From the IMG/VR virus record IMGVR_UViG_3300037010_004438: 64,000 nt of DNA. The stretch is one strand, 5' to 3'. The notes under the pieces were generated by a model. The model was given only the letters and a program-made list of their open reading frames with translations. It was not told where the DNA came from and ran no database searches. Positions 308-54,085 of this stretch are shown piece after piece. How positions within the stretch are numbered: the first letter of the stretch is position 1; each line of letters starts with the position of its first letter. The DNA comes from an uncultured virus (IMG/VR IMGVR_UViG_3300037010_004438). Lineage: Duplodnaviria > Heunggongvirae > Uroviricota > Caudoviricetes. The position numbers and the translations under genes are program-made.

Positions 308-811
308 ATGGCGAGCAGGAAAACGACTTCCGGGAAGCCGGTCGGAAAGCGGAGGGGTCCCGCTCCCGAGACGCCCATGACCCACCTGCGCAAGCGCCGG
401 ATGGCTGACTGTCCGCGCATCTCGATCGCCATCCCGGCCTCGCTCGCCGAGGCGACGGACAAGCGGCTCAAGTCGCGCGAGGGGGAGACGACCAAGGGCG
501 TCGACGAGATCATGGCCGCGTTCGGTCGCGAGACGTGGAAGGAGTACAACCTCCTTCGCGAGCATCTGGTGGAGTGTTCGCTCCACGAGTGCCGCACGCT
601 CTTCGTGCACAAGGGGTACTTCTCCCGTCAGAAGTACTGTTCTCGTCGGTGCCAAGAGATCGCGAATCGCAGAGCGCGCATCGACGAGCTGCGGCAGTCG
701 GAGCTGATGACGACCTATCTTGCGATGCTCGACAAGAAGATGCGCAAGGACGACGACGCGGACATGGAGACGATGTTTGGACCTTCGATAGGCAAGGACG
801 AGGAGGAGTGA
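308..811 (+). CDS. hypothetical protein with CGNR-like Cys motif (possible DNA-binding protein)
   Basis: ATG after promoter; CxxxxC...YCSRRC motif; stop overlaps next ATG. Confidence 0.6.
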   Translation: MASRKTTSGKPVGKRRGPAPETPMTHLRKRRMADCPRISIAIPASLAEATDKRLKSREGETTKGVDEIMAAFGRETWKEYNLLREHLVECSLHECRTLFVHKGYFSRQKYCSRRCQEIANRRARIDELRQSELMTTYLAMLDKKMRKDDDADMETMFGPSIGKDEEE

Positions 812-1659
812 TGGCGCTGAAAGCATCGCTTGTGGCGACGGACTGGAAGGCCCGGTATCGAGCGCGTTGGGGCAACCGGCCCCCTTTCGCGGGGCCGAAC
901 TGGTTCTACATCTCGGAGTTCGAGGACTCGATTCGCAAGTGCTGTGTGTGTGGCAGCTCTCACTTCTTCGAGCCGAACAGCATCGGTTACTGGTCCGCGG
1001 ACGTCTTCCGCTGCGCGCACTGTGCGAGTCGCGACAAGGCTCCTTCCGCCGATCAGGGCTGCTACATCGGCCGCGCGTTCCTCAAGTACGGCCAGGTCCA
1101 CAACGAGTGGCGAGCGACCTGCATTTGCTGTCGGACGCGCTTTTTCAACGAGGCGCCCCCTCGCCTTCGCAAGCGCACGGACAAGGAACGTTCTCGTGAC
1201 ACGATCGGGGCGCGGTATCGTCACGGCTCTGGTGCGAAGGCGAAAGACTCGTCGCTTCGCGACTTCTGTGATCGTTGCGATGGGTCGATGCGGCCTGCGA
1301 AGTACCCCTCCGAGTTCGGATACGAACTCCCCGAGAGGTGGCCGAAGACTCCTCCGAAGCGCAAGAAGCTCCCGAAGGAAAAGCCGGCAGTCCGCAATCG
1401 CCCGCAGCAGCGAGAGCCCCTTCCTCCCGCTCCCGAGCTGACGGAGGAGCAGAAGCGCCTCCGGAACAAGGTCATGACCCGTCGCGACTATCTGTCGCTG
1501 CTCAAGGAGGTCGACGCCGATCTCGCTGTCAAGCACAAAAAGCAGCGAGAAAGGGCGGAAAAAGAGGCTGCGGAAGCCCTCGCCCCGCCCTCGACTTCCA
1601 AGAAGTCATCCCGCTTCACGCTCCCTGCGTCCGGGCGTCGGCAAAAACGCGCATCATGA
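811..1659 (+). CDS. hypothetical multi-CxxC (zinc-ribbon) protein
   Basis: GGAGGAG RBS; CCVC, CAHC, CICC and CDRC motifs. Confidence 0.6.
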   Translation: MALKASLVATDWKARYRARWGNRPPFAGPNWFYISEFEDSIRKCCVCGSSHFFEPNSIGYWSADVFRCAHCASRDKAPSADQGCYIGRAFLKYGQVHNEWRATCICCRTRFFNEAPPRLRKRTDKERSRDTIGARYRHGSGAKAKDSSLRDFCDRCDGSMRPAKYPSEFGYELPERWPKTPPKRKKLPKEKPAVRNRPQQREPLPPAPELTEEQKRLRNKVMTRRDYLSLLKEVDADLAVKHKKQRERAEKEAAEALAPPSTSKKSSRFTLPASGRRQKRAS

Positions 1660-1715
1660 CGTAGTAGGGGGTGGGGTGGAGATCGAGAAATATCACGTTG
1701 GCGCCGGGCGTCAAT

Positions 1716-1728
1716 CGTTCTTTGAAAA
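1716..1728 (+). promoter_or_regulatory. boxA-like antitermination element
   Basis: CGTTCTTTGAAAA resembles the rrn-leader boxA (GTTCTTTGAAAA type); ~45 nt upstream of the first array repeat. Confidence 0.5.
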
Positions 1729-1771
1729 CCTGGATTCTCTGGAATGGCACGAGCACAGTGAACGATGTCTG

Positions 1772-2097
1772 GAGGTGGCGCGAGGTCTTCACTCTTGCGT
1801 CCGTGGGCTCCCTGTCTTAGAGGCAGCGCCTTGAAGCTCGCGACTGCGCTCACCTCGTGAAAGGCATTGCGACGCCTTGAAGTTCGCTAAATCCGCCATG
1901 AATCCCTAGTAGCGACGCGCGGCTGTGGACGGCGCGGCTATGGACGGCGCGACTCGCAAGTCAGAGCGCTGTAGGCATCGCGCGGCCCTGAACGGCGCGA
2001 CTCGCAAGTCAGAGCGCTGTAGGCATCGCGCGGCCCTGAACGGCGCGACTCGCAAGTCAGAGCGCTGTAGGCATCGCGCGGCCCTGAACGGCGCGAC
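1772..2097 (+). CRISPR. non-canonical CRISPR-like array, part 1 (7 structure-conserved repeats; the last 3 repeats are identical, at 48-nt period)
   Basis: Units at 1772, 1820 (loop deleted), 1861, 1909, 1972, 2020, 2068: 5-bp stem, 8-nt loop, ~GAAN, then 8 nt complementary to the loop; 16-18 nt intervening segments. Confidence 0.6.
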
Positions 2098-2236
2098 GAG
2101 ATCTCGGTGTGCCGCGGCCAGCTCCGCAGCGTCATCGGTGGATGGAGGAGGGCCTGCGCCTCCGCGGCGCGGGGAGCCGCGGCGGGATCGCTTTGCTCTG
2201 CCCTTCGGCGCCGGGTGCGAAGCATGTGCGGATGGC

Positions 2237-2404
2237 GCGGTACATGGTGGCGGGGCGGTGCGGTATGTGGCGGCGCAGACGGCGCGGCACATGGCGACGT
2301 AGATGGTGCGGTATGCGGTGGCGCAGACGGTGCGGTACATGGCGGCGCAGGCGGCGTGGTACATGGCGGCGCAGACAGTGCGGTATATGGCGACGCAGGT
2401 GGCG
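2237..2404 (+). repeat. degenerate 24-bp tandem repeat, ~7 copies
   Basis: consensus GCGGTACATGGCGGCGCAGACGGT; copies differ mostly by transitions. Confidence 0.8.
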
Positions 2405-2564
2405 GAGAGTGGCCGCGCGTGCTTCTCAGCTCCGGGCGCGAAGCGGATGGAGGACGAGGGCGGGAAGGTGCGGGCGGTGGGGCCTTATAAGGCGGCGGCC
2501 AAAGGTCGGTAGCGGCTCGACTTGCGGGAAGTCGGCGCCGGCGCGCCTGGAGGCGGCTTGAGCC

Positions 2565-3550
2565 GCGGACGGGTCCGCAGCTTGAGGTTTGGATGGGGGA
2601 GGTGATGCGGATGATGACGCGGAGTGTGGAGGCGGGCAGCGGCGGAGGCAGCGGCCTGGGAGGCGCTTCGACTCCGGGTGCGGCGGCGATGGAGCGGCTC
2701 AGTGAGGTGATGATGGAGAGGTAGGAGGGTCTTGGCTTCGCGGCCTCCGGAGGACGCCCGCCGCCATGGACGTCCGTCGGGTTCGGGCAGAGACGCGGAC
2801 GGCCCCGTAGCTTGAGGTTTGGATGGGGGAGAGGATGGAGATGGGGATGGTGGAGGCGGGGGCGGGCAGCGGCAACGGCAGCGGCCTCCACGGCACGTCG
2901 ACGCCGGTAGCGCAGTTCGCGTTCGGATCCGTTGCCACTTGAGCGTTGAGGAACGTGGTCGGAGGAAGGATGGCCCTCGGATGTCGGACGCCCATAGGGC
3001 CGCCGGTCGGGCTCGGGCGGAGACGCGGACGGGTCCGTAGCTTGAGGTTTGGATGGGGGAGGCGATGGAGATGATGGTGGGGAAGGCGAGGGCGGGCAGC
3101 GGCGGAGGCAGCAGCCTCCACGGCGCGTCGACGCCGGTAGCGCAGTTCGCGTTCGGATCCGTTGCCGCTTGAGCGTTGAGGAACGTGGTCGGAGGAAGGA
3201 TGGCCCTCGGATGTCGGACGCCCGCAGGGCCGCCGGTTTGGGCGATGTGGAGCCGCGGACGGGTCCGTAGCTTGAGGTTTGGATGGGGGAGAGGATGGTG
3301 GTGGCGGTGGGGAAGGCGAGGGCGGGCAGCGGCAACGGCAGCGGCCTCCACGGCACGTCGACGCCGGCGGCGCAGTTCGTGTTCGGACCCGCTGTCGCTC
3401 GAGCGTCGAGGAACGTGGTCGGAGGAAGGATGGCCCTCGGATGTCGGACGCCCATAGGGCCGCCGGTCGGGTTCGGGCGGAGACGCGGACGGGTCCGCAG
3501 CTTGAGGTTTGGATGGCGGAGATGATGAGGATGGCGGTTGGGAAGGCGGG
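2565..3550 (+). repeat. 230-bp tandem repeat, ~4.3 copies
   Basis: CTTGAGGTTTGGATGG recurs at 2581, 2811, 3041, 3271, 3501 (exact 230-nt period, not a multiple of 3). Confidence 0.9.
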
Positions 3551-3802
3551 GGCGGACAGCGGCCTCGTGCGCTTCTCGGCCCCGGGTGCGAGGTTGGTGG
3601 GGGCGTTGGAGGGGGCGGGGGAGGCGGGGGCGGAGGGTGTTCACACAGGAGCGAACGGGGCTCGGTGGCGGTTCGGGGCGTGGTTCGTAGGGCGGCTCGG
3701 GGCGTGGTTCGGAGCGCGCCTTGACGCGCGGCTCGGGGCGTGGTTTGGCGGGTGTTGGCGTACTGACCTGCGGTTCGGAAGGACGGGTTGATTTGCGGGA
3801 AG

Positions 3803-4621
3803 TCGGCAGCGCGCGGCTGTGAACGGCGCGAGGCGCGACTGCGATCGCAGAGGCGGCGCGGGGCCTTGGACGCCGCGACGCGTTCACGCGCTGGTAGAGG
3901 CGATCTCAGAGGTAGCGCGGGGCCTTGAAGAGACATCGCGTCGTCTTCGTGGCGCGACAGCTGCGAGAAGGAGAGGTTCCGCGCCGCCTTGAAGAGCGCG
4001 GACCGAATTTCAGGTCCAAGAAGGCTACGCGAGGCCTTGAATGCGCGACTTTCCTCGGATTATCGAAGAGCGGCGCGCGGCTCTGAACAGCGAGCAGAGA
4101 GGCGGAGGGCGGTCTCTGATCATCTTGTTCGCAAGAGGACGAATCGAGCTTCGGTCGAAAGCTCGATGTCACAACGTTGCGTCGGTGGCGAACGAGTGGC
4201 AGCGCTCGACGTTCTCGTAAAAAAGGATCGCGCGTCTCAGCATGCGCGAGTCCCAGTTGCAGGAGAGGCTGCGAGCCGTCTTTTGCTGGCTCGCCAAACA
4301 GAAGCAAAGAAGGTTGCGGATTGCCTTGAAACATCCGAGCAAGGAGACCGCGATTGGCGCGTCGCGCGGCGGACAGCGCGAGTAGGTGCCCCGGTTCCAA
4401 GACTGCACCGCGACGCAGTGAAGTTCGCGACGCAGTGAAGTTCGCGACGACGTCCACAGCGGCGAAAGGATCGCGCCCCTGTCGTGGAGCGCGAGGGAGT
4501 CTGGCGAGGTTGAGGACGGACGTCCCGGTGAAGTGGAATGCGAGATGTTCGTGGATGATCGGCGACGCGCCGACCGTACAAGAGCGCGGGGTAGCAGAGT
4601 CGGCGGCGCGCCGCCGCGAAG
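3803..4621 (+). CRISPR. non-canonical CRISPR-like array, part 2 (~14-16 structure-conserved, sequence-divergent repeats)
   Basis: Stem starts at 3803, 3850, 3909, 3973, 4021, 4067, 4099, 4138, 4222, 4265, 4310, 4356, 4402, 4465, 4559, 4600; typical period 44-48 nt; covarying stem and loop:3' pairing; some units degenerate. Confidence 0.6.
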
Positions 4622-4724
4622 GTCCGTCAGCGTAGAATCCGGGCTTTTTTTCATAGCCTTTCGATGTTCTTTCTTGTTGATCTTATTGGCTGTTCTGGTA
4701 GGGTCGGTTTTCTTACGAGGAGGC

Positions 4725-4937
4725 ATGATGGGACAGGAAATCAGCAGGCAGGAGCTTCTTCAGCTCCTCTTCAACGTGAAGCCTGAGATCAAGGGGCGCG
4801 GCCCGATGTCGGACGCGACGAGGCAGCTTCTGTCGGAGGACTTCATCGACGTCGAGATGGACGTGGACGGCGTGCACTGGAATGCGCGCCTCACTTCGAA
4901 GGGGGAGAAGCGGCTCTCCGCGCTTTTGGCGCAATGA
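4725..4937 (+). CDS. small hypothetical protein (winged-helix-like end, LTSKG)
   Basis: GAGGAGG RBS before ATG. Confidence 0.55.
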   Translation: MMGQEISRQELLQLLFNVKPEIKGRGPMSDATRQLLSEDFIDVEMDVDGVHWNARLTSKGEKRLSALLAQ

Positions 4938-5160
4938 CGTTGTTGAGAGGGTCTGGCCTCTGCGCAGCGTGCGGAGAGCGCAGGCCCGCCGCGTTTTTTC
5001 AAGATTCCGGAGGGTGTTCCGACTCCTCTCGGATACGACTTCTCGAAGCCGCTGCCTCCACGGTCTTCGGTGATGGCGGGCGGGAAGGTCTGGTACGTGT
5101 GTTCGACGACGTGTGCCAAGGAGACGCTCCGCAGGCATGGGCTGCCGGGCGGCGGATGAG

Positions 5161-5796
5161 ATGGTCGAAGCGCGCGAGATTGAGAAGATCAAAGCGCTGA
5201 TCGCACGGAGCGCGTCCCCCGCGGAGGAAGAGGCGCGTTCGAGTGCGTATTTGGCCTGCAAGAAGATCCGGGAGTTGGGTCTCACGGTCGCTGAGCCGGG
5301 AGCGACCTTTCTGTCGTCGGCGGGCGCGGACGCGGAGATGCGAACGCTTCGCGTACAGGCGCAGCAGCAGCAGACGCTCATCGACAAGCTGCGCAGAGAC
5401 CTGAAGAATCAGGAGCACCTTGCAGAGTCGTTTCGATCGTCGTGCGCGAACTTGGAAGCGAAGCTGAAAGCGTCTCAGAACGCTGCGGGCGAGCGGACGA
5501 GTGTTCTTGATGGACTTCCCGTCGCGAAGAGAGCGGCAGCGCCCGCGCCAAGGAAGCAAGCTTCCACAGCGCCGAAGACGGCTCCAAAACCTTCTCCGAG
5601 CAAGGGAGGAAAGGCGGGAGCAAAGGGGGCTCCGAAGGGCTTTCAGCGCATGGAGGGGTTCTACGATACGCGCGTGATCTTCGCCAAGTACGAGAGCGTT
5701 TGCCGAGCGTGCGGCTCCTCGATAGACGAGGGAGAGAAGGTGGTCTGGACGCCTGGGGAAGGCGTTCAGTGCATGAACTGCGGCGGGAGGGACTGA
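5161..5796 (+). CDS. hypothetical protein: DUF2786-like N-terminus, coiled coil, C-terminal Zn ribbon
   Basis: IEKIKALIARSAS..EEEARSS; AKYESVCRACG...CMNC. Confidence 0.6.
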   Translation: MVEAREIEKIKALIARSASPAEEEARSSAYLACKKIRELGLTVAEPGATFLSSAGADAEMRTLRVQAQQQQTLIDKLRRDLKNQEHLAESFRSSCANLEAKLKASQNAAGERTSVLDGLPVAKRAAAPAPRKQASTAPKTAPKPSPSKGGKAGAKGAPKGFQRMEGFYDTRVIFAKYESVCRACGSSIDEGEKVVWTPGEGVQCMNCGGRD

Positions 5797-8783: not shown

Positions 8784-8878
8784 CGAATCGATGGTACTAC
8801 GCGCCTTGGCATCCGGTAAGTTTTTCTGGCGGATTGGAGCGAGTCCCGGCCCAACGCCGATGGCGCAGCTTGAGGCGG

Positions 8879-8953
8879 AGGACTCAGGGGGATTTGAACC
8901 CTCGATCAGCGGATTTAGAATCCGCGGCTTTGACCAGGTTAAGCTATGAGTCC
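8879..8953 (-). tRNA. tRNA with CUA anticodon (amber suppressor type)
   Basis: Cloverleaf GGACTCA TA GCTT-AACCTGGTCA-AAGC C GCGGA-TTCTAAA-TCCGC TGATC GAGGG-TTCAAAT-CCCCC TGAGTCC T; anticodon at 8916-8918; CCA not encoded. Confidence 0.88.
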
Positions 8954-22049: not shown

Positions 22050-22526
22050 CTAGAACCCCCGCGTCGGACGCTTCATGAAGCGGTTCTTGGCGGCGGCCGA
22101 CTTCGCCTTCTTCTCTGGCGCTGGCTTCGGCGTCGGGGAGGTCGCGCTCTCGTCGAGAGCGGCGGAGATGTAGAGGTAGCCGCACGACCTTCGCGGGTTG
22201 CATCGCAGGCGGTAACCGTCGCCCGCGATCTCGACCTCGGCGTCTTCGGAGGTGCGCGGGAGCTTGTAGTCGCGGGCCATGGCCCGGAGCATGGGCATCG
22301 CCTTGTGATTGAGCCATTCTTCGAGAGCTTTGCGCTCTTCGGGACTGGCCTCGCCCTCGACGCCCTGGCGATCCCAGAGCGTGTCGACGGACGTGCCGTC
22401 GAAGATTGCGCGCGCCGACCAGTGAAAGCGGACGCCTGGAGCGGGGTTCAGACCCCACCCCTTGTCAGGCCCTTTCGTGGCCGGAGATTTGACCGTTTCG
22501 CCGGTCGAGCCATTTTGGTTCGCCAT
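22050..22526 (-). CDS. hypothetical protein
   Basis: AAGGAG RBS. Confidence 0.6.
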   Translation of the reverse strand: MANQNGSTGETVKSPATKGPDKGWGLNPAPGVRFHWSARAIFDGTSVDTLWDRQGVEGEASPEERKALEEWLNHKAMPMLRAMARDYKLPRTSEDAEVEIAGDGYRLRCNPRRSCGYLYISAALDESATSPTPKPAPEKKAKSAAAKNRFMKRPTRGF

Positions 22527-33883: not shown

Positions 33884-34076
33884 TCCGCGGGTAGCGAGGC
33901 GTCGGCGGGTCTGACGCCTTCGCGGGAACCTCCCTTCTTCGCTCCCGCCCGACTGGGCGACCGCCGCCGGGCGGGCGGGACGAAGATGAGGAGGTTTTCG
34001 TCTCTTTCGGCCTGTTTCGCAAGTCAGTGATGGGCGTCTCTCGAACGGGTCCGAGATTCGGTAGGATGGCTGCTCG

Positions 34077-35459
34077 ATGGCCGCAAAGAAGAAGAAGCGG
34101 GCGACCACGCTGAGGGGCTCTTCCGGAGCTTCGAAGGCTTCTTCTGCGGGCGCGCAAAGGCCTGTTCGGAGAACTCCGGCGAAGAAGGCGGCGGCGCGCG
34201 TGAAGTCGCGCCCCGCCGCGAAGCGCTCGGCTCCAAAGGGCCGCCCGGCTGCAAAGAAGCGTTCCGTCAAGACTCCGAAGGCTGCCTCTCGAAAGACGCC
34301 GAAGAAGGTCGTCCCCAGGAAGACGCCGAAGAAGGTCGTCCCCAGGAAGACGCCGAAGAAGGTCGTCCCCAGGAAGACGCCGAAGAAGGTCGTCCCCAGG
34401 AAGACGCCGAAGAAGGTCGTCCCCAGGAAGACGTCGAAGAGGGTTGCGACCAAGAAGGCCGCGGTCAAGAAGGCCGCGGTCAAGAAGGCTGCGGTCAAGA
34501 AGGTCGCGGTCAAGAAGGTCGCGGTCAAGAAGGTCGCGGTCAAGAAGGTCGCGGTCAAGAAGGTCGCGGTCAAGAAGGCCGCGGTCAAGAAGGCCGCGGT
34601 CAAGAAGGCCGCGGTCAAGAAGGCCGCGGTCAAGAAGGCTGGCGTCAAGAAGGCGGCCGTCAAGAAGACGGGCGCCAAGAAGACGACGAAGGCTTCGGCG
34701 AAGACGTCGAAGAAGGCGGTCAAGAAGGCCTCCAAGAAAGTCGTGAAGAAGACCTCGCAGGCCGCTAAGAAGGCCGCGGAGAAGGTCTCGAAGAAGGCGG
34801 CGAAGAAGGTATCGAAGAAGGCGGCGAAGAAGGTCGCAAAGGCCGCGAAGAAGGCTGCAAAGGCTGCAAAGAAGGCCAAGAAGCCTTCTCGCCGCTTCGT
34901 CAAGGTCACGCCCGAGCTGATTCTGATCGGGAAGGTCCCGAAGAAGCGAGGTCGGCGCGGCGGATGGGGACCCAAGACGGAGGCGATGAGGGTCGCAACG
35001 GATCGCGCGCTGGCTTTCGCGAAGTCGATCGCCGTCATGCACGGGTGGCGCGCATCGATGCATGTACACGCATATGCGGAGGGAGTGGTCGACGGAGACC
35101 TGTCGGTCGACATTCCTTCGACGGAGAATGACTACGACACGATCGCCAGGATGGTCCGTCAGGTCGTCGAGGGCATCGAGACTGTCGGAGGTCTTGGACG
35201 CTCTTTCGTGGTCTGCAACTGGATCCTTCGGCCGGACGCCGAGCGGCATCAGGATGAGGGAGCCCCGAAGTACAAGAAGCACGAGGGCGGCTTGAGGGTA
35301 CCGCTCCACTTTCAGCTCTTCGAGCGTCTTTCGGAGAACGCCTCGACGGCGCTGGTGGTCTTGAGAAACATCATCGAGGCGCACGAGGGGGAGGCGCCGA
35401 TCGGGTTCGTGGTACGAACGGCGTGGGCAGAGGACGGGAAGCTTCACCGGAGGGAATGA
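34077..35459 (+). CDS. histone H1-like Lys/Ala-rich protein with globular C-terminal domain
   Basis: (KTPKKVVPR)5 and (KK[AV]AV)~14 repeats, then a ~180-aa non-repetitive domain. Confidence 0.8.
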   Translation: MAAKKKKRATTLRGSSGASKASSAGAQRPVRRTPAKKAAARVKSRPAAKRSAPKGRPAAKKRSVKTPKAASRKTPKKVVPRKTPKKVVPRKTPKKVVPRKTPKKVVPRKTPKKVVPRKTSKRVATKKAAVKKAAVKKAAVKKVAVKKVAVKKVAVKKVAVKKVAVKKAAVKKAAVKKAAVKKAAVKKAGVKKAAVKKTGAKKTTKASAKTSKKAVKKASKKVVKKTSQAAKKAAEKVSKKAAKKVSKKAAKKVAKAAKKAAKAAKKAKKPSRRFVKVTPELILIGKVPKKRGRRGGWGPKTEAMRVATDRALAFAKSIAVMHGWRASMHVHAYAEGVVDGDLSVDIPSTENDYDTIARMVRQVVEGIETVGGLGRSFVVCNWILRPDAERHQDEGAPKYKKHEGGLRVPLHFQLFERLSENASTALVVLRNIIEAHEGEAPIGFVVRTAWAEDGKLHRRE

Positions 35460-37933: not shown

Positions 37934-38461
37934 ATGGAGCCTTGGGAAGTCTCCGATACGGAGGGGGAGGACGCAGGGTTCGGCTTCGGCGTCAAAGTTG
38001 CCGGTAGCGAACGAGAGATCGTCGCGCGCGGCGCTGTCTCTCTCGCGAATGCGAGAGCCATTGTCGCCGCGCACAACGAGAAGATTCGAGTTCGCGTGGG
38101 GCGAGGCTGGAAGGGGAGAGGGGTGTACGCCGCCCGCGCGCACGCTCCGGATGAAGTCATCGAAGAGTGCCACGTCTTGCTCCTCCCTTCGAAAGAGCTT
38201 CGCGGGAAGCTCTCCTACTACTGTTTTCAGTGGAGCGACGAGATGAGCGCGCTGCTTCTCGGCAACGGTTCTCTCTTGAACCATTCCTACGCGCCGAACG
38301 CGTACGTGCTGTTCGATCGGAGGGGGACCATGGCCTCGGTCGTCGCGAGGTCCTCGATCGCTGCGGGGGACGAGATCCTCATCAACTACAATGGGGATCC
38401 GGACGCGACGGAAAAGGTCGCGTTTTATCGCCCTTTGAGGCGGACGAGGAAGAAGCGATGA
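37934..38461 (+). CDS. SET-domain protein (putative lysine methyltransferase)
   Basis: KGRGVYA, LLNHSYAPNA, GDEILINY. Confidence 0.92.
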   Translation: MEPWEVSDTEGEDAGFGFGVKVAGSEREIVARGAVSLANARAIVAAHNEKIRVRVGRGWKGRGVYAARAHAPDEVIEECHVLLLPSKELRGKLSYYCFQWSDEMSALLLGNGSLLNHSYAPNAYVLFDRRGTMASVVARSSIAAGDEILINYNGDPDATEKVAFYRPLRRTRKKR

Positions 38462-45536: not shown

Positions 45537-47585
45537 GTGCTGAGTCGGATCACCTCGCAGCGTGAGAAGCGCAAATTCGAGACGTACGACATGGAGTGGA
45601 CGCCGGGTCGTGCGAAGGTCGGAGATTCCGAGCCTACGAAGCTGAAGGACAACCTTCGACTGGTCGGCTCATACGACGGTAAGCGGTATCGAGCGTTTTA
45701 CACGGTCGACGACTTTTTGAACGCGAGGCTCACCGCGGAGAACAATGAGAAGTGGTTTTACGCCCACTACGGCGGCATGGCCGACTCGCAGTTTCTCCTG
45801 GAGCGCCTCATCTCGCGCATTCCGGAGTTTCAGGTGGACGCGAGCTTCTCGGGCTCGTCCGCGATCATCATCCACGTCCGCAAGGGACAGCACGTTTGGC
45901 ACTTCATCGACAGCTTCTGGCTCTTGCGCGACAAGCTCGCGAACATCGGCGCCGTCGTCGGACTTGATAAGCTCGGCGAAGAGTACGCTTGCTCGAATTT
46001 TCCGCACTGCGGTCATGTTGACGAACTCGACAATCGCTACCTCGACCCGGGGCGCGATCCGAGCTGTTCGCACCCGACGGACAAGCGGCACGACGACTTC
46101 TGCACGCTCTGCGGCAAGCAGTTCCCGCATGCGATGTGCGTCTTCTGGGCGAAGATGCCCGAGCTGAAGGAGTACAACGAGCGCGATTGCGTCATTCTCT
46201 ATCGGGCGATCGAGCAGTTCGAGGACGTCCTCTTTCAGCTCGGAGGACAGCTGCAGATGACGATTGCTTCCTGCGCCATGCACCTCTTTCGGCGCGTGTA
46301 CTTGCAGGACAACATTCGCACCAACGCGGCCGTCAACGGTTGGGCTCGCCTCGCGTATACCTCCAGTCGCGTCGAGGTGTTTCAGAGCCGCTGCGAGGAA
46401 GCTCACTATTTTGACCTGAACAGCTCGTTTCCCTACAGTATGACGTTCGACTGTCCTGGGAATGTGAAGAAGGGAGGGCTCAAGGACGGCAAGCTGCCGA
46501 AGAATCGCCTGGGCTCCATCTTCATCGCGGACTGCGAGGTCGAGGTGCCCGAGATGTACCTTCCTCCTTTGCCGTATCGGCACGACAACCGAGTCTTTTT
46601 CCCGATCGGCAAGTGGCGTAGCTGGTTCTCTGGCATCGATCTGGAGCTTCTCGAACGGCGCGGCGGCCGCATTCTGAAGGTGTACCAGAGTATCGAGTTC
46701 GAGAAGCAGAGCTACCTTCGCGACTACGCGCTCGACATCTACGCGCGTCGAAAGGCCAGCAAAACCAGCTTCGAAAAGCTTGTGTATAAGCTCCTTATGA
46801 ATTCGCTGTACGGAAAATTCGGTGAGAGAACGGAGAAGACGGGGCTCCTCGTGAACCCCGAGAGCCCTCACTGTCCGCACAAGGTGAAGCACCGTTGTCA
46901 ATCGTGGCCGGCGTGCGAGCACGCCCTTGCCGGCAACGAGTGCGACCTCTGCATGCAGCACCTCTTCGGATCGGCGTGGCTCGTCACGGACAACGTGCCG
47001 CTCTCGCACGAATGGGTTCCCATCGCGGTCGAGATCACGAGTCGCTCGCGCATGAACCTCGAAGGGCACCTCTGGAACGCGCAGCACGACATCTACTACT
47101 GCGACACCGACTCCGTCATCACGACGGCCAATCTCCCCTCCGATCCGACGACGCTCGGCGCGCTGAAGTTGGAGGACGAGATCAAGAACGGCGAGTTCGT
47201 CGCGTGCAAGATTTACGCGGTCGATGTCGTGACGACGGAGGACCACCTGAAGAAGAATCCCCACTACGGCCCGACCCATTGGAGCACCAAGGCCAAGGGG
47301 TTCTCGCGCATGAACTACCCGAAGTTCTGCGACGTTCGCCTCGGCGAGGAGATCCAGATCGCGCGCATGACGCGCCTCCGCGAGCTGTATCGCAAGGGCG
47401 CGACGTCGCCGGAGGAGGCCATCGTCTCGAAGTCTCTCGTGCAAAAGTGCATGCCGAAGCGCTGCATGTTCCCGAGCGGTCAGTCGCGCCCCTGGTCGGT
47501 CGCGGAGATCGAGAACAACTACATGGACCTCTCGATCCACATCGAGCCTCCCGAGCCCCCGGCGACGGTGGCGGACGTCTCCTGA
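45537..47585 (+). CDS. family B DNA polymerase, related to the protein-primed (DNA_pol_B_2) group
   Basis: ExoI YDME, ExoII YAHYGG.AD, ExoIII YNERD; YFDLNSSFP, KLLMNSLYGKFG, YCDTDS, KIY, KAKG. Confidence 0.93.
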   Translation: MLSRITSQREKRKFETYDMEWTPGRAKVGDSEPTKLKDNLRLVGSYDGKRYRAFYTVDDFLNARLTAENNEKWFYAHYGGMADSQFLLERLISRIPEFQVDASFSGSSAIIIHVRKGQHVWHFIDSFWLLRDKLANIGAVVGLDKLGEEYACSNFPHCGHVDELDNRYLDPGRDPSCSHPTDKRHDDFCTLCGKQFPHAMCVFWAKMPELKEYNERDCVILYRAIEQFEDVLFQLGGQLQMTIASCAMHLFRRVYLQDNIRTNAAVNGWARLAYTSSRVEVFQSRCEEAHYFDLNSSFPYSMTFDCPGNVKKGGLKDGKLPKNRLGSIFIADCEVEVPEMYLPPLPYRHDNRVFFPIGKWRSWFSGIDLELLERRGGRILKVYQSIEFEKQSYLRDYALDIYARRKASKTSFEKLVYKLLMNSLYGKFGERTEKTGLLVNPESPHCPHKVKHRCQSWPACEHALAGNECDLCMQHLFGSAWLVTDNVPLSHEWVPIAVEITSRSRMNLEGHLWNAQHDIYYCDTDSVITTANLPSDPTTLGALKLEDEIKNGEFVACKIYAVDVVTTEDHLKKNPHYGPTHWSTKAKGFSRMNYPKFCDVRLGEEIQIARMTRLRELYRKGATSPEEAIVSKSLVQKCMPKRCMFPSGQSRPWSVAEIENNYMDLSIHIEPPEPPATVADVS

Positions 47586-47813
47586 TTCATAAAGAGGTTA
47601 TGGAGGCGGGTTCGGCAGGCCAACCCGCGCTCGTCCCCGTTCCTGATGCGAGCCGCAAGGCGGCGATCAGGAGCGGGAGCGGGAGCGGGAGAGAAGGAGG
47701 ACAGAGGCAGCCCGCATACCCCTTCGAATGCGGGACGCGCAGTTGTGGCACGAGAGGGGCCCGAAGCCCTTTCCTCGAATTTCGGGCGAGAACATGGGTT
47801 CTTCGGCGGGGTC

Positions 47814-47841
47814 TTGACAGCTCTGCTAACGGAACTATTGT
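47814..47841 (+). promoter_or_regulatory. sigma70-like promoter of the Cas12m-like gene
   Basis: TTGACA-16 nt-TATTGT. Confidence 0.5.
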
Positions 47842-47909
47842 GGGCTCTGTCGAGAGGCTTTCTCGACAGGCTCCAGCGGAGTGAGGAACTCCGAGAAAGA
47901 GGCGCGAAC

Positions 47910-49841
47910 ATGCGCGTGTTGGTCTACCGCTACGGTCTCTTGGCCCCTACCGAGAACGCGGACGTGGTGCGCGAGCAGATGCGCGCCGCGCACGACTACC
48001 GCAACACCCTCGTCGAGATCGAGCGGGGGCGGCGCGCGGCACGGCGTGCGGCGGAGGCGGCTGCGCCGGAGGTGTCGAGCGAGGAGGAGGCCATCAAGGC
48101 GGCGGACAAGGTCGTCGAGGACGCGCTCAAGGCGGTCAAGCAGCACAGGTCGAAGGGGCGTACGCGCCAGGTTCCCGAGGAGCTGAAGGCGGCCCTCACC
48201 GATGCGCGCATCGCCCGCCGCGACGTCGTCGCGCGTCTGCGCGAAGCTCGCAAAGCGGCGCGTGAGAACAAGGATCTGAAGGCGCGCGTCGAGGAGATCG
48301 AGGAGATTGCGAAGGAGCTTCGCAAGAACGCGCGAGCCTACACCCCGACGTACTGGGGGACCTACCTCCTCGTCGAGGAGGCTGATCAGGCGGCTAGGAA
48401 GGCACCTCTCTACGACGGCGCGGAGCCGAACGATCCGGCCTTCCAGCACTGGTCAGGCGAGGGCCTCATCGGCGTGCAGCTGCAGAAGGGCGCCGAAGCG
48501 GCGGAAATCTTCGACATCCTCTCGCCGACGGAGCCGTTCGTGAACGGCCGCGCGGCGATGAAGGTCGTCTCTCGCTCGAACGATACCCGCCTGCGCGTCG
48601 AGCACGTCCCGCACGCGTCGGGCAAGGAGAAGCAGAAGAAGCGCTTCGGCAAGCTCTGGATGCGCGTCGGTTCGACGGAGGACCGCAAGCCCGTCTGGGC
48701 GGTCTTCCCGATGATCGTGCATCGCGAGCTGCCGCCGGGCGCGCGCATCAAGCGCGCGATCGTCCAGCTGCGCAAGATCGGCCCGCGCGAGGAGTGGTCG
48801 GTCCTCTTCACACTGGAGCTTCCGGACGCGAGTCGCGGGAAGAAGGGAGGCGTCGTCGCGGTCGACCTCGGTTGGCGCGCGCTCGACGGCGGCGCGATCC
48901 GGGTCGGGACGTGGCAGGACGATCAGGGCGGCTCGGGGGAGATCGTCCTCGACGCTCGCGCGGTGAGCGGCCTGCGCTATCCGGAACACCTGCGGTCCAT
49001 CCGTGACAAGGCGTTCGACGCGGCGCGCGAGGAGTTCGTCAAGGCGCTCAAGGAGCATCGGGAGCGCGCCTCCGAGGGCGCCGCGGCGACGCTCCCCGAC
49101 TGGCTCCTCGCGGCGACGGAGACGGTCTCTCAGTGGCGTTCGGCAGCGCGCCTCGCAGCGCTCGCGAAGCGGTGGCGTTCGCTTCGCTTCGAGGGCGACG
49201 CGGGGCTCTACGAGCCGCTGGAGCGCTGGCGATACCACGACCACCACCTCTGGCAATGGGAGAACGATCAGCGCTCGGGATCGCTCCGCAATCGGCGCGA
49301 GATCTACCGCGTCGCCGCGAGCCAGTTCGAGAAGCGCTACGACACGCTCGTCCTCGAAGGAACCGAGGACGGCAAGGCGATGAACCTCGCGGAGATGCGC
49401 GAGAAGCCGAGCGCGGAGAAGGCCGAGACGGGCGAGCGAAGTCAAGCGACGCTCGCGGCTCCCGGAGAGCTTCGCAGGGTCCTTCTCAACGCGTTCCAGG
49501 GCTCGATCGTCGATGGGGAAGCGAAGACGAAGCGCGTTGTCTTCATCCCCGCCAAGAACACGACGAAGACGTGCCATGCGTGCGGGAGCATCGAGACGTG
49601 GAACGCGGCGCGCGACGTTCATCACACCTGCTCGAAGTGCGGGACGTTCTGGGATCAGGACGTGAACGCGGCGAAGAACCTCCTCTTGCGCCACCTCACG
49701 GCGGGCCAGCCGGCGATCGTCGACGCTCCTCCGCCGGAGGCCGAGGCGACGCGGTGGAAGCGTGTGCGGGCGATGAAGAACGAGAAGGACGCTCGCAAGG
49801 CAGAGAAGGTCATCGAGGTCGAGGGCAGCGCCGAAGCCTGA
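47910..49841 (+). CDS. Cas12m-like (type V-M/V-U1) / large TnpB-family RuvC RNA-guided effector, 643 aa
   Basis: RuvC-I VAVDLGWR, RuvC-II LVLEG, Zn finger CHACG..CSKCG, RuvC-III DQDVNAAKNL; Cas12m-type motifs YWGTY, GEGLIGVQLQ, RVGS..PVW..P..VHR.LP, QWRS..RLA.L..W, AAPGELR. Confidence 0.85.
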   Translation: MRVLVYRYGLLAPTENADVVREQMRAAHDYRNTLVEIERGRRAARRAAEAAAPEVSSEEEAIKAADKVVEDALKAVKQHRSKGRTRQVPEELKAALTDARIARRDVVARLREARKAARENKDLKARVEEIEEIAKELRKNARAYTPTYWGTYLLVEEADQAARKAPLYDGAEPNDPAFQHWSGEGLIGVQLQKGAEAAEIFDILSPTEPFVNGRAAMKVVSRSNDTRLRVEHVPHASGKEKQKKRFGKLWMRVGSTEDRKPVWAVFPMIVHRELPPGARIKRAIVQLRKIGPREEWSVLFTLELPDASRGKKGGVVAVDLGWRALDGGAIRVGTWQDDQGGSGEIVLDARAVSGLRYPEHLRSIRDKAFDAAREEFVKALKEHRERASEGAAATLPDWLLAATETVSQWRSAARLAALAKRWRSLRFEGDAGLYEPLERWRYHDHHLWQWENDQRSGSLRNRREIYRVAASQFEKRYDTLVLEGTEDGKAMNLAEMREKPSAEKAETGERSQATLAAPGELRRVLLNAFQGSIVDGEAKTKRVVFIPAKNTTKTCHACGSIETWNAARDVHHTCSKCGTFWDQDVNAAKNLLLRHLTAGQPAIVDAPPPEAEATRWKRVRAMKNEKDARKAEKVIEVEGSAEA

Positions 49842-49927
49842 GGCGGCGGGCGCTAGGCAGAGCTTCGGAAATCGGGTAGGGTCGCCCGGCGACTCGGCCT
49901 CGCGTGAGAAACGAGAGGATGTGGCAG

Positions 49928-50269
49928 ATGAAGAAGACGCGGAGACTCTACCCCCTCGATCCAGACATCGTCGCGGCGGCCCGCGCTGGGCGCGACATGG
50001 GCGACGAGCGCGCCGCTTGGGCGCTCGTCGACGAAGTGCTCTTCTCGACGCCCATCCATGAAGACGGGCTCGTCGGGGCGGTCGAGGTCGCGCCGATTCC
50101 GGGGCTCATTCCGGTCCCGGTTGGCCTCGCCGCCTACGCGGTCCCGTCTTCGGACGCGGAGATGCGGCAAAAGGTGGAAGATCGTGCGGTTTCGCTCGGG
50201 GAGATCCTCGTGCACGCGGACGCGCGCGTCATGGTCGTGACGAACGGTCTCTCGGAGCTGAAGGGGTAG
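49928..50269 (+). CDS. hypothetical protein
   Basis: ORF directly downstream of the effector. Confidence 0.55.
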   Translation: MKKTRRLYPLDPDIVAAARAGRDMGDERAAWALVDEVLFSTPIHEDGLVGAVEVAPIPGLIPVPVGLAAYAVPSSDAEMRQKVEDRAVSLGEILVHADARVMVVTNGLSELKG

Positions 50270-50657
50270 ATTCGGTTTGGAGAGCGCGGTTCTCCATGTT
50301 GTGCAGGGCGCATGGCTCGTCGCCGTCATGTGGCCGCTCGTGTGGTTTGCGACGCGCGACGTCCCGAGCGGCGTCGATTCGGAGGACGAAGATGTTTCGA
50401 CAGGGCACGGCCTTCTTGGTGATGTGCATCCGCGAAAACGGGCAGATCGAGTCAATCGGCGTCTACAGTGAGCCGCATCCGACATCGATCGACGGGAGGA
50501 TCATGCTCTGTCTCAACGCGTTCCCCGCGAACCCGGAGATGGCGCCCATTCCCTATGGGCTCGCGGCGAAGCAGATGGAGAAGTGGGCGTTCGAACGGCT
50601 CCCCGCGCGTCTGCGTCCGTACATCCGCCGAACGGGCTGGACGCCGGAGCTGCCGCG

Positions 50658-53695: not shown

Positions 53696-54085
53696 ATGAA
53701 CCAGCGCGAAGAAGCGGCCCTCGCTGTCGCCATGGATTTTGAGAAGCTTGAAGTCTATGGGCTCGCGACGGAGTTCGTCTCCGTTTCCTACGCGCTCGTG
53801 CGCGAGCTTTCATCCGAGTTTGCGGACATCGTTTCTCAACTTCGAAGAGCCTCATCGTCCGTCGCCCTCAACATCGCCGAAGGCGCTGACCGAATTGGGC
53901 CTAAGGACAAGGCAAACCGATACGCCATCGCGAAAGGATCCGCGGAGGAGTCTGCCGCGGCGCTGGAACTTCTTGCCCGGATGGGCGCAATCTCCGCGAG
54001 CGACCATCTGCGCGCAAGAGCGTTGGCGGCCCGCATCTGTCGAGGGCTTACGGCACTCTCGAAGGCGACGTTGAAGAGAGCGTGA
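53696..54085 (+). CDS. four-helix bundle protein (23S rRNA IVS protein family)
   Basis: FEKLEVY, QLRRASSSVALNIAEG, IAKGSAEE; flanked by inverted repeats. Confidence 0.9.
   Translation: MNQREEAALAVAMDFEKLEVYGLATEFVSVSYALVRELSSEFADIVSQLRRASSSVALNIAEGADRIGPKDKANRYAIAKGSAEESAAALELLARMGAISASDHLRARALAARICRGLTALSKATLKRA

Follow-up and report, generated by a model that had tools for sequence, protein, structure and literature searches.

Background

Bigelyte et al. (2024) listed 134 variants of the CRISPR effector Cas12m (type V-M, formerly V-U1) and tested eight of them, four with the RuvC catalytic triad D-E-D, two with H-D-D and two with N-D-D. All eight bound double-stranded DNA (dsDNA) in a manner dependent on a protospacer-adjacent motif (PAM), and none cut it (PMC11013384). 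Omura et al. converted the H-D-D triad of Cas12m2 into D-E-D, and cleavage was not restored (PMC10442227). The triad states on record for Cas12m are D-E-D, N-E-D, H-D-D, N-D-D and H-E/Q-K (PMC10442227, PMC11013384). Here we describe a Cas12m gene (cas12m) carried by an uncultured virus of the class Caudoviricetes on a 64,000-nucleotide (nt) stretch of DNA (IMG/VR record IMGVR_UViG_3300037010_004438; hereafter the window), together with putative guide units that lie ~43.5 kb away from it.

The loci of MmCas12m2 and GoCas12m are plasmid-borne or chromosomal and have adjacent arrays. These two proteins (PDB entries 8hhl, 8hio and 8pm4) resemble the window protein in fold, in a pseudoknot handle built of CRISPR RNA (crRNA) only and in a helical REC domain, but their first two catalytic residues are His and Asp instead of Asp319 and Glu483, and their identity to it is 22-23%. 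Cas12m of PDB entry 23vw, TfCas12m and MsCas12m share with it the D-E-D triad, a CCCC zinc ribbon, a length of ~600 amino acids (aa) and a repeat that forms a two-stem pseudoknot (PMC11013384). Unlike these D-E-D orthologues, the window protein is phage-borne and has no adjacent array; its units, 43.5 kb away, have diverged and are closely packed, with periods of 46-63 nt.

A preprint of September 2026 presents MvCas12m of myxophage MV-1 as the first phage Cas12m (10.64898/2026.09.14.751636). MvCas12m and the window protein are alike in being phage-encoded D-E-D forms with no cas1, cas2 or cas4; in both cases a Polyangiales host is suggested and spacer targets were not found. Compared by description and not by sequence, the two differ: MvCas12m has 610 aa, an adjacent array (one consensus repeat, eight spacers) and a temperate phage with an integrase, whereas the window has a protein of 643 aa, a distal diverged array and a neighbouring polymerase of the protein-primed type.

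TnpB (IS200/IS605) and Cas12f have the core of RuvC domain and zinc ribbon in common with the window protein. Unlike them, it has a long REC insertion, no TnpA and, in its relatives, CRISPR repeats in place of an omegaRNA, and the sequence match is confined to its last ~55 residues. Mini-arrays and solitary repeat units of viruses, without adaptation genes and distant from cas genes, have reportedly been described by Faure et al. in 2019, Medvedeva et al. in 2019 and Camara-Wilpert et al. in 2023. Unlike those viruses, the window virus also encodes a matching effector, so its units need not act on a host system. Full-text searches, with subscription journals and supplements outside their scope, gave no paper on a phage Cas12m separated from a diverged array.

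Putative guide units far from the cas12m gene

With the window protein a known and well-studied family gains a member, and finding the triad of this protein intact is unsurprising; the unusual part is the split locus with its compact, diverged and apparently fixed guide set. We consider it probable that the window holds a phage-borne D-E-D Cas12m that uses distal guide units to bind, and not to cut, target DNA, and that its set of guides is fixed. What is noteworthy in this layout is that a phage Cas12m is uncoupled from its array, and that the units have drifted yet kept their fold, are packed at the minimum usable guide length and are unchanged across four samples.

Most related loci have their repeats close to the gene. 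Of 39 related loci, 26 have an array of at least three repeats by a k-mer scan; it begins 25-570 nt downstream of the gene, in most cases 60-300 nt, and a covariance model built from 22 such repeats found one to three repeats downstream in nine of the 13 remaining loci, several of which are cut by contig ends. A 36-nt pseudoknot repeat is present within ~1 kb downstream of the gene in 35 of the 39. The repeats are near-identical within each array and recur with a period of ~73 nt. Their pseudoknot consists of a 4-bp and a 5-bp stem; 93.4% of the cells in these stems are paired, all nine pairs are changed on both sides, and none of 500 shuffles scored as high. The crRNAs of Cas12m2 and PmCas12m have the same two-stem architecture (PMC10442227; preprint 10.64898/2026.03.26.714355).

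In the window, the covariance model, which contains no window sequence, gave only noise next to the gene (47698-47736, 10.9 bits, E 1.4; 49970-49989 on the minus strand, 8.1 bits), and the next open reading frame (ORF) begins 62 nt after the cas12m stop codon. The preliminary description of this DNA was thus right that no array adjoins the gene, and we conclude that an adjacent array is a habit of the locus and not a property of the Cas12m protein. It had also placed the guides ~43 kb away, and pseudoknot units that look cognate do occur at 1.8-4.45 kb, all of them on the strand of cas12m and ~43.5 kb upstream of it within the window (Table 1); as read from their sequence, they would be the predicted guide source.

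One unit is a canonical repeat, and seven of the nine next-best covariance matches lie at 1814-4339 on the plus strand. A strict two-stem pattern has ten hits in the window, nine of them at 1908-4432 on the plus strand, against a mean of 2.9 per whole shuffled window (20 shuffles); with only one of the ten outside 1.9-4.43 kb, solitary repeats are not dispersed over the window. We count 15 units with 13 distinct sequences, whose median pairwise identity is 48%. Their stems are conserved nonetheless: across 12 distinct units, 98 of 107 stem cells are paired, compared with 31-52 of ~106 when the alignment is slid, and compensating changes occur, such as G-C, A-T, T-A and C-G at one stem position. 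In most units conservation is limited to the pseudoknot-forming 3′ portion of the repeat (~29 nt); in the Cas12m2 structure, the seven nucleotides at the start of the repeat are disordered (PMC10442227). The intervals between the 29-nt handles are 17, 34, 19, 19, 19, 18, 34, 32, 17 and 17 nt and never fall below 17 nt, which equals the optimal guide length of ~17 nt given for PmCas12m (preprint 10.64898/2026.03.26.714355). A short period is also seen at an Actinomadura Cas12m locus (47 nt).

The units lie in a 3.7-kb stretch without a convincing ORF (812-4532). Also in this stretch are G-rich runs and tandem repeats with units of 230 nt (~4.5 copies, 2560-3602) and 24 nt (~7 copies, 2237-2402); it may serve as an origin or for packaging, or be an end of the genome. 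Contigs of four public DNA runs cover 3711-5600 and show no differences inside the units of clusters B and C; these runs are sediment and microbial-mat metagenomes that may include the source sample and possibly belong to one campaign. In all four there is an alternative continuation after 3740 that carries a further Cas12m repeat-like unit, and the sequence after this junction is absent from the window even with three mismatches allowed. There are therefore more units than those of the window, be it at other places in the genome or in a variant that co-occurs.

Further features of the arrays were observed in the relatives. In eight loci (L001, L002, L021, L023, L028, L030, L033 and L036), arrays with a period of ~73 nt include single units that are spaced far more tightly (38-64 nt), with spacers of ~2-28 nt. 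In the array leaders (the 60 nt before the first repeat, loci L001-L039), two motifs stand at fixed distances: (C)CGCTCGCAA at about -53, which resembles the 5′ end of the repeat itself, and GGAATGAT or TGAAATCA at about -27, the latter in a subset only (9 of 29 by pattern). Depending on the locus, (C)CGCTCGCAA falls either within the 3′ end of the cas12m ORF or beyond its stop codon, and we therefore read this motif as a nucleic-acid signal. The tail of cas12m in the window carries GCTCGCAAG at 49793-49801, yet no array comes after it.

Catalytic triad and DNA binding

As had been described from the sequence, the RuvC triad is intact, with D319 in VAVDLG, E483 in LVLEG and D584 in DQDVN; the three residues align with the D, E and D of 23vw. 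This is one of the known states of the Cas12m triad. Among 226 relatives, 177 have D-E-D and 49 an altered triad; the latter have mostly lost the first residue (replaced by N or H), and their third Asp is nearly always present. Of 38 proteins derived from the related loci, 20 have D-E-D, 16 are altered and two are truncated, and the altered ones are scattered over a quick tree of the family. The repeated loss of D-E-D indicates that catalysis is dispensable in this family, and its retention in the majority indicates that the site still does something. Perhaps, by analogy with what has been shown for H-D-D, the retained site serves metal-mediated binding of the displaced strand.

The intact triad had earlier been taken to mean that the protein is possibly nuclease-competent, on the premise that characterised Cas12m proteins have non-canonical triads. 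This premise is outdated, as D-E-D forms of Cas12m are already known and the four that were tested did not cut dsDNA (PMC11013384). By analogy with them, we judge that the window Cas12m probably only binds its target, and that some triad-dependent cutting or nicking is improbable. The sub-clade to which the window protein belongs could be used to test why D-E-D is kept although the tested members of the family do not cut dsDNA.

Assignment to the Cas12m family

Sequence profiles and structure comparison agree on the identity of the protein. The PADLOC profile Cas12u1 (V-U1 being the old name of type V-M) matches residues 1-594 over profile positions 1-529 of 533 (E 4e-105). A second PADLOC profile, labelled Cas12f (PDLC01692), matches at full length with E 1e-98; this label evidently covers V-U1-like proteins, because solved Cas12f chains match only at the C-terminus and with E≥1e-3. 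In a phmmer search of the PDB, the full-length matches were Cas12m 23vw (1.1e-65), GoCas12m 8pm4 (1.4e-28), Cas12m2 8hio (6.9e-28; 8hhl 7e-28) and UnCas12m4a (1.6e-16), while Fanzor, Cas12f and TnpB-like chains matched only at residues ~540-596 and with E≥1.7e-4. The sole Pfam domain seen is the Cas12f1-like TNB zinc ribbon PF07282 (E 4e-12). The NCBIfam model guided_TnpB reached 34.5 bits against a cut-off of 100, at residues 541-594 only. Likeness to CasPhi/Cas12j was absent, both by sequence (7odf_A, E 0.32) and among the listed Foldseek matches at E≤6e-5. TldR proteins are TnpB-like nuclease-dead repressors (preprint 10.64898/2026.03.26.714355), defined by an inactivated RuvC triad, and the triad of the window protein is intact.

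An AlphaFold2 (AF2) model built from a 32-sequence alignment (mean predicted local distance difference test score, pLDDT, 86.1) has the compact bilobed fold of Cas12m, with helices at residues 17-163 between the WED strands and a C-terminal RuvC domain with the zinc ribbon. The long helical N-terminal insertion noted earlier is therefore real in the model, but it is the ordinary REC domain of Cas12m and not a peculiar insertion. The top Foldseek matches are Cas12m2 and GoCas12m (8hhl, 8hio, 8pm4; E 1e-30 to 1e-27, template-modelling (TM) score 0.54-0.61), followed by Cas12f (E 1e-11, TM 0.34) and TnpB 8h1j (E 5e-6). Only one of the three residues of the Arg-rich pocket or "Roof" of Cas12m2 (R111, R112, R126) aligns to an Arg, in REC helices whose alignment is unreliable at 23% identity; the REC region of the window protein is rich in Arg and Lys (33 of 147 residues). 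In contrast to 23vw, the protein has an extra conserved basic helix at its C-terminus (residues 615-642, positions 49752-49838), with the consensus ..RW.RAKR..AEK.AR.. in the 32-sequence alignment and beyond the region that aligns to solved Cas12m structures.

Judged from its sequence and its predicted fold, the window protein is a full member of the Cas12m family (type V-M, formerly V-U1), neither a TnpB nor a half-way form. The preliminary description had recognised it as Cas12m-like, which stands in a stronger form, and had proposed an intermediate between TnpB and Cas12, which we abandon: the Cas12m architecture is complete, the family is large (1867 clusters), and TnpB and Cas12f match only the C-terminal zinc ribbon. 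Profiles, PDB chains and Foldseek all favour Cas12m over a placement among ordinary TnpBs.

Relatives of the window protein

Of the 8000 candidates scored in a word-indexed protein search, 287 were relatives at E≤1e-5; the best match, 51% identical, is from a metagenome-assembled genome (MAG) of Polyangiales. An exhaustive search of 1.84 billion representatives gave 1867 clusters at E≤1e-30. For the related loci, pattern-seeded scans drew 15 from bacterial genomes or MAGs and 24 from viral contigs of IMG/VR; a metagenome contig supplied one more, the single locus of the metagenome scan, with 43% identity to the window protein. Two of the loci (L003, L004) are on contigs of Polyangiaceae MAGs. 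Among GenBank phages there is one homologue, in Virus Rctr197k (KX853510.1, a 197-kb record; 33.5% identity, E 5e-52), where it is annotated as "similar to transposase" and stands beside an annotated CRISPR repeat region. Cas12m is thus a common gene of viral contigs, with 24 loci in IMG/VR and one phage in GenBank, which qualifies the 2026 claim of a first phage Cas12m. Close relatives of the window phage itself were not found, the best protein match being that of 51% identity, and a tblastn search with the 72 other window proteins (all calls except cas12m) against the loci of the relatives gave three weak matches.

In the quick tree, which is midpoint-rooted without a TnpB outgroup and has weakly supported deep branches, the window protein groups with two paralogues of one 152-kb IMG/VR contig (SH-like approximate likelihood ratio test, SH-aLRT, 83) and next with two other viral contigs and one MAG contig (93); all of these have D-E-D. 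The flanks of two viral loci of this sub-clade contain PHROG replication genes (helicase, polymerase exonuclease subunit, HNH, thymidylate synthase). The contig with the two paralogues (L017 and L024; 152,857 bp) carries them ~49 kb apart, one with a nine-repeat array and the other with only three diverged repeats nearby. Three relatives (P0039, P0166, P0211) are longer, 930-990 aa, with an extra N-terminal part that in P0039 carries PF16003.

Proposed mode of action

These results lead us to the proposal that Cas12m would be made from its own promoter within the replication module of the phage. It would bind the ~29-nt pseudoknot handle of RNAs transcribed from 1.8-4.45 kb, and the 17-34 nt after each handle would act as guides for PAM-dependent binding of dsDNA. 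The bound DNA would be blocked in transcription or replication and left uncut, as with all Cas12m proteins tested. Active arrays copy their repeat at each acquisition. The units of the window differ from one another and are the same in four samples, and for these reasons the guide set looks old and fixed; because adaptation genes are absent, the phage could not acquire spacers itself. The guides may thus be a hard-wired targeting or regulatory set and not an immune memory that is updated, and candidate targets are genes of the host, genes of the phage that lie beyond the window, or rival elements. If the guides are functional, this would be a natural case of CRISPR serving as the fixed targeting or regulatory set of a virus.

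Several points weigh against this proposal. Transcription of the units and their binding by the protein are predictions from sequence, and a promoter-like site on the plus strand was not found in 800-4800. There is one strong unit only; the others score 9-16 bits, which overlaps noise matches elsewhere in the window, and the case for them comes from their clustering, their strand and their kept base pairs. It is also odd for a guide set that three of its members have the same sequence. The window is part of a genome, and a closer array may lie outside it, while the distance would be shorter if the genome were circular or short. Non-cleavage is carried over from orthologues of partial similarity, the closest solved one scoring 223 bits, and if the protein did nothing but bind, the presence of D-E-D in 177 of 226 relatives and throughout the sub-clade of the window protein would be left unexplained. 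Furthermore, no target was found for any guide in the window, IMG/VR, GenBank phages or three Myxococcota MAGs.

These target searches were of several kinds. The 18 nt after each of 14 unit ends, compared with both window strands at up to two mismatches, had no matches other than the tandem copies. In IMG/VR, an exact match was found for neither of two full spacers (23 and 24 nt). The array region matched GenBank phages only at E 0.8, and its matches to the three Myxococcota MAGs were GC-rich noise (E≥0.003) with no guide hit except in the low-complexity segment 4346-4386. A candidate target at 34017-34027 on the plus strand, which equals the first 11 nt of the thrice-repeated guide (TCGCAAGTCAG), was rejected, since chance alone would give ~0.4-0.9 such matches before a PAM is required. 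The match is preceded by TT and lies 60 nt upstream of an ORF with lysine-rich tandem repeats (34077-35459).

Alternative explanations

The protein could be an orphan effector: the units would be what is left of a decayed set, or would have some other function (such as decoy RNAs against a Cas12m of the host, or part of a replication or packaging region), and guides would come from the host, a co-infecting element or the rest of the genome, or the protein would be on its way to being lost. By the family model 14 of the 15 units are degenerate, they sit in a non-coding, repeat-rich stretch among 24-nt and 230-nt tandem repeats, and targets and a promoter were searched for and not found; relatives in Polyangiaceae MAG contigs make a host Cas12m to be decoyed conceivable, and the extra unit on the alternative continuation after 3740 shows repeat-like units absent from the window. 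We nevertheless regard an orphan effector as distinctly unlikely. In 12 distinct units compensating changes have preserved both stems of the pseudoknot, and this speaks for selection on how the RNA folds. Moreover, nowhere is the spacing shorter than a usable 17-nt guide, every unit is on the strand of the gene, and the ORF is intact with codon-position GC like that of its neighbours. A doubtful extension of the proposed binding is hard-wired RNA-guided control, in which at least ten diverged minimal crRNA units (29-nt handle and 17-34-nt guide) would act as fixed repressors of host or phage genes and not in immunity, and D-E-D may add an undetected activity such as nicking of the displaced strand; if true, a virus would have a natural CRISPR interference (CRISPRi) regulon whose effector is uncoupled from its guides along the genome.

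The same Cas12m could also be catalytically active, its D-E-D site cutting or nicking the target DNA or the displaced strand, so that the phage would destroy and not silence its targets. The triad and the zinc ribbon are intact, D-E-D is shared by 177 of 226 relatives and by every member of the window sub-clade in the quick tree, and Omura et al. raised hydrolysis as possible for D-E-D clades (PMC10442227). The sub-clade also has a specific sequence after the catalytic Glu (EGTEDGK..., also in P0002), and the tested orthologues may not represent it. However, four D-E-D orthologues had no dsDNA nuclease activity when tested (PMC11013384), the back-mutation from H-D-D to D-E-D gave no cleavage (PMC10442227), and the first catalytic residue has been lost repeatedly among close relatives, which makes an active nuclease unlikely. 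Finally, the gene could be an ordinary transposon-type TnpB with a 3′ omegaRNA, as part of an IS200/IS605/IS607 element. It has the PF07282 zinc-ribbon domain in common with these and weak NCBIfam TnpB matches, but the guided_TnpB score is far below its cut-off (34.5 against 100 bits) and covers the last 55 residues only, and the full-length matches are to Cas12m. In addition, there is no TnpA family among 66 window ORFs and no Rfam match in 47400-50400, the next ORF follows the stop codon at a distance of just 62 nt, and CRISPR repeats lie downstream in 35 of 39 relatives. A TnpB is already contradicted by this analysis and would be very improbable.

Gene structure and coordinates

Translation of the gene gives the 643 aa expected from the earlier description, followed by a stop codon. 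Its frame is already open from 47646, upstream of the ATG at 47910. We take this ATG as the start because the alignments of the two closest relatives begin only at residue 3-4 of the 643-aa form and because the promoter lies inside the stretch 47646-47910. The gene had been credited with a promoter of its own, and a match to the sigma-70 consensus is indeed present, once against 0.1 expected in 50 shuffles; as a consensus match, this promoter is predicted. The predicted 5′ untranslated region (UTR) of 70 nt folds with -31.1 kcal/mol (z -3.2), and its hairpin was not recognised as repeat-like by the family covariance model. No RNA runs covering 47600-50000 were listed. The ORF is intact, and its codon-position GC resembles that of the neighbouring genes.

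Table 1. Positions in the window of the cas12m gene, its parts, the putative guide units and the neighbouring polymerase gene
Feature	Position	Strand	Basis
Putative guide-unit cluster A, ~6-7 Cas12m-type units including three identical 48-nt units (29-nt handle + 19 nt)	1814..2097	+	
Putative guide-unit cluster B, six diverged units whose 29-nt handles are 17-34 nt apart	3804..4095	+	
Sole canonical 36-nt repeat (ATCGCAGAGGCGGCGCGGGGCCTTGGACGCCGCGAC)	3844..3879	+	35.1 bits, E 1.9e-6; 28/36 identical to the repeat of related locus L019
Putative guide-unit cluster C, three units, two overlapping	4304..4448	+	
DNA polymerase B, protein-primed type, neighbour (context, not part of the system)	45537..47585	+	phrog_1907 E 9e-40; PF03175 E 5e-33
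Predicted sigma-70-like promoter of cas12m (TTGACA, 16 nt, TATTGT)	47814..47841	+	10/12 consensus matches
9-bp hairpin in the predicted 5′ UTR, between promoter and start codon	47847..47869	+	Fold
cas12m gene, 643 aa, type V-M / V-U1 effector, D-E-D form	47910..49841	+	PADLOC, PDB phmmer, AF2, Foldseek
RuvC-I Asp319 codon (VAVDLG)	48864..48866	+	Aligned to D of 23vw, H of Cas12m2/GoCas12m
RuvC-II Glu483 codon (LVLEG)	49356..49358	+	Alignment
CCCC zinc ribbon of the TNB domain (C555, C558, C574, C577)	49572..49640	+	PF07282, E 4e-12, residues 538-591
RuvC-III Asp584 codon (DQDVN)	49659..49661	+	Alignment

Phage context

The window is phage-like in its PHROG and Pfam gene content, in line with the earlier view of the gene as phage-borne. 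Apart from the polymerase, it encodes a polymerase exonuclease subunit, a 5′-3′ exonuclease, a ParB-like protein, a Dda-like helicase, a Dam methylase, a MazG-like pyrophosphatase and a NUDIX protein, and many of its proteins were matched only in PHROGs or nowhere. The reported lack of cas1, cas2, cas4 and TnpA was borne out, as none of the Cas1, Cas2, Cas4 and TnpA families has a Pfam match at E≤1e-4 among the 66 other window ORFs. Rfam gave no match in 47400-50400, and insertion-sequence ends were not searched rigorously.

A tRNA with the anticodon CTA (amber suppressor; tRNA-Pyl by ARAGORN) lies at 8877-8953 on the minus strand (Rfam, 62.5 bits). Among 73 rough ORF calls, the stop codons are TGA in 46, TAG in 23 and TAA in four; with 23 of the 73 calls ending in TAG, this codon is not obviously recoded. 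The window also carries unusual cargo for a phage: a SET-domain protein (37934-38461), a 23S rRNA intervening-sequence protein (53696-54085) and a weak CbeA-antitoxin-like match (22050-22526) that falls just under the Pfam cut-off.

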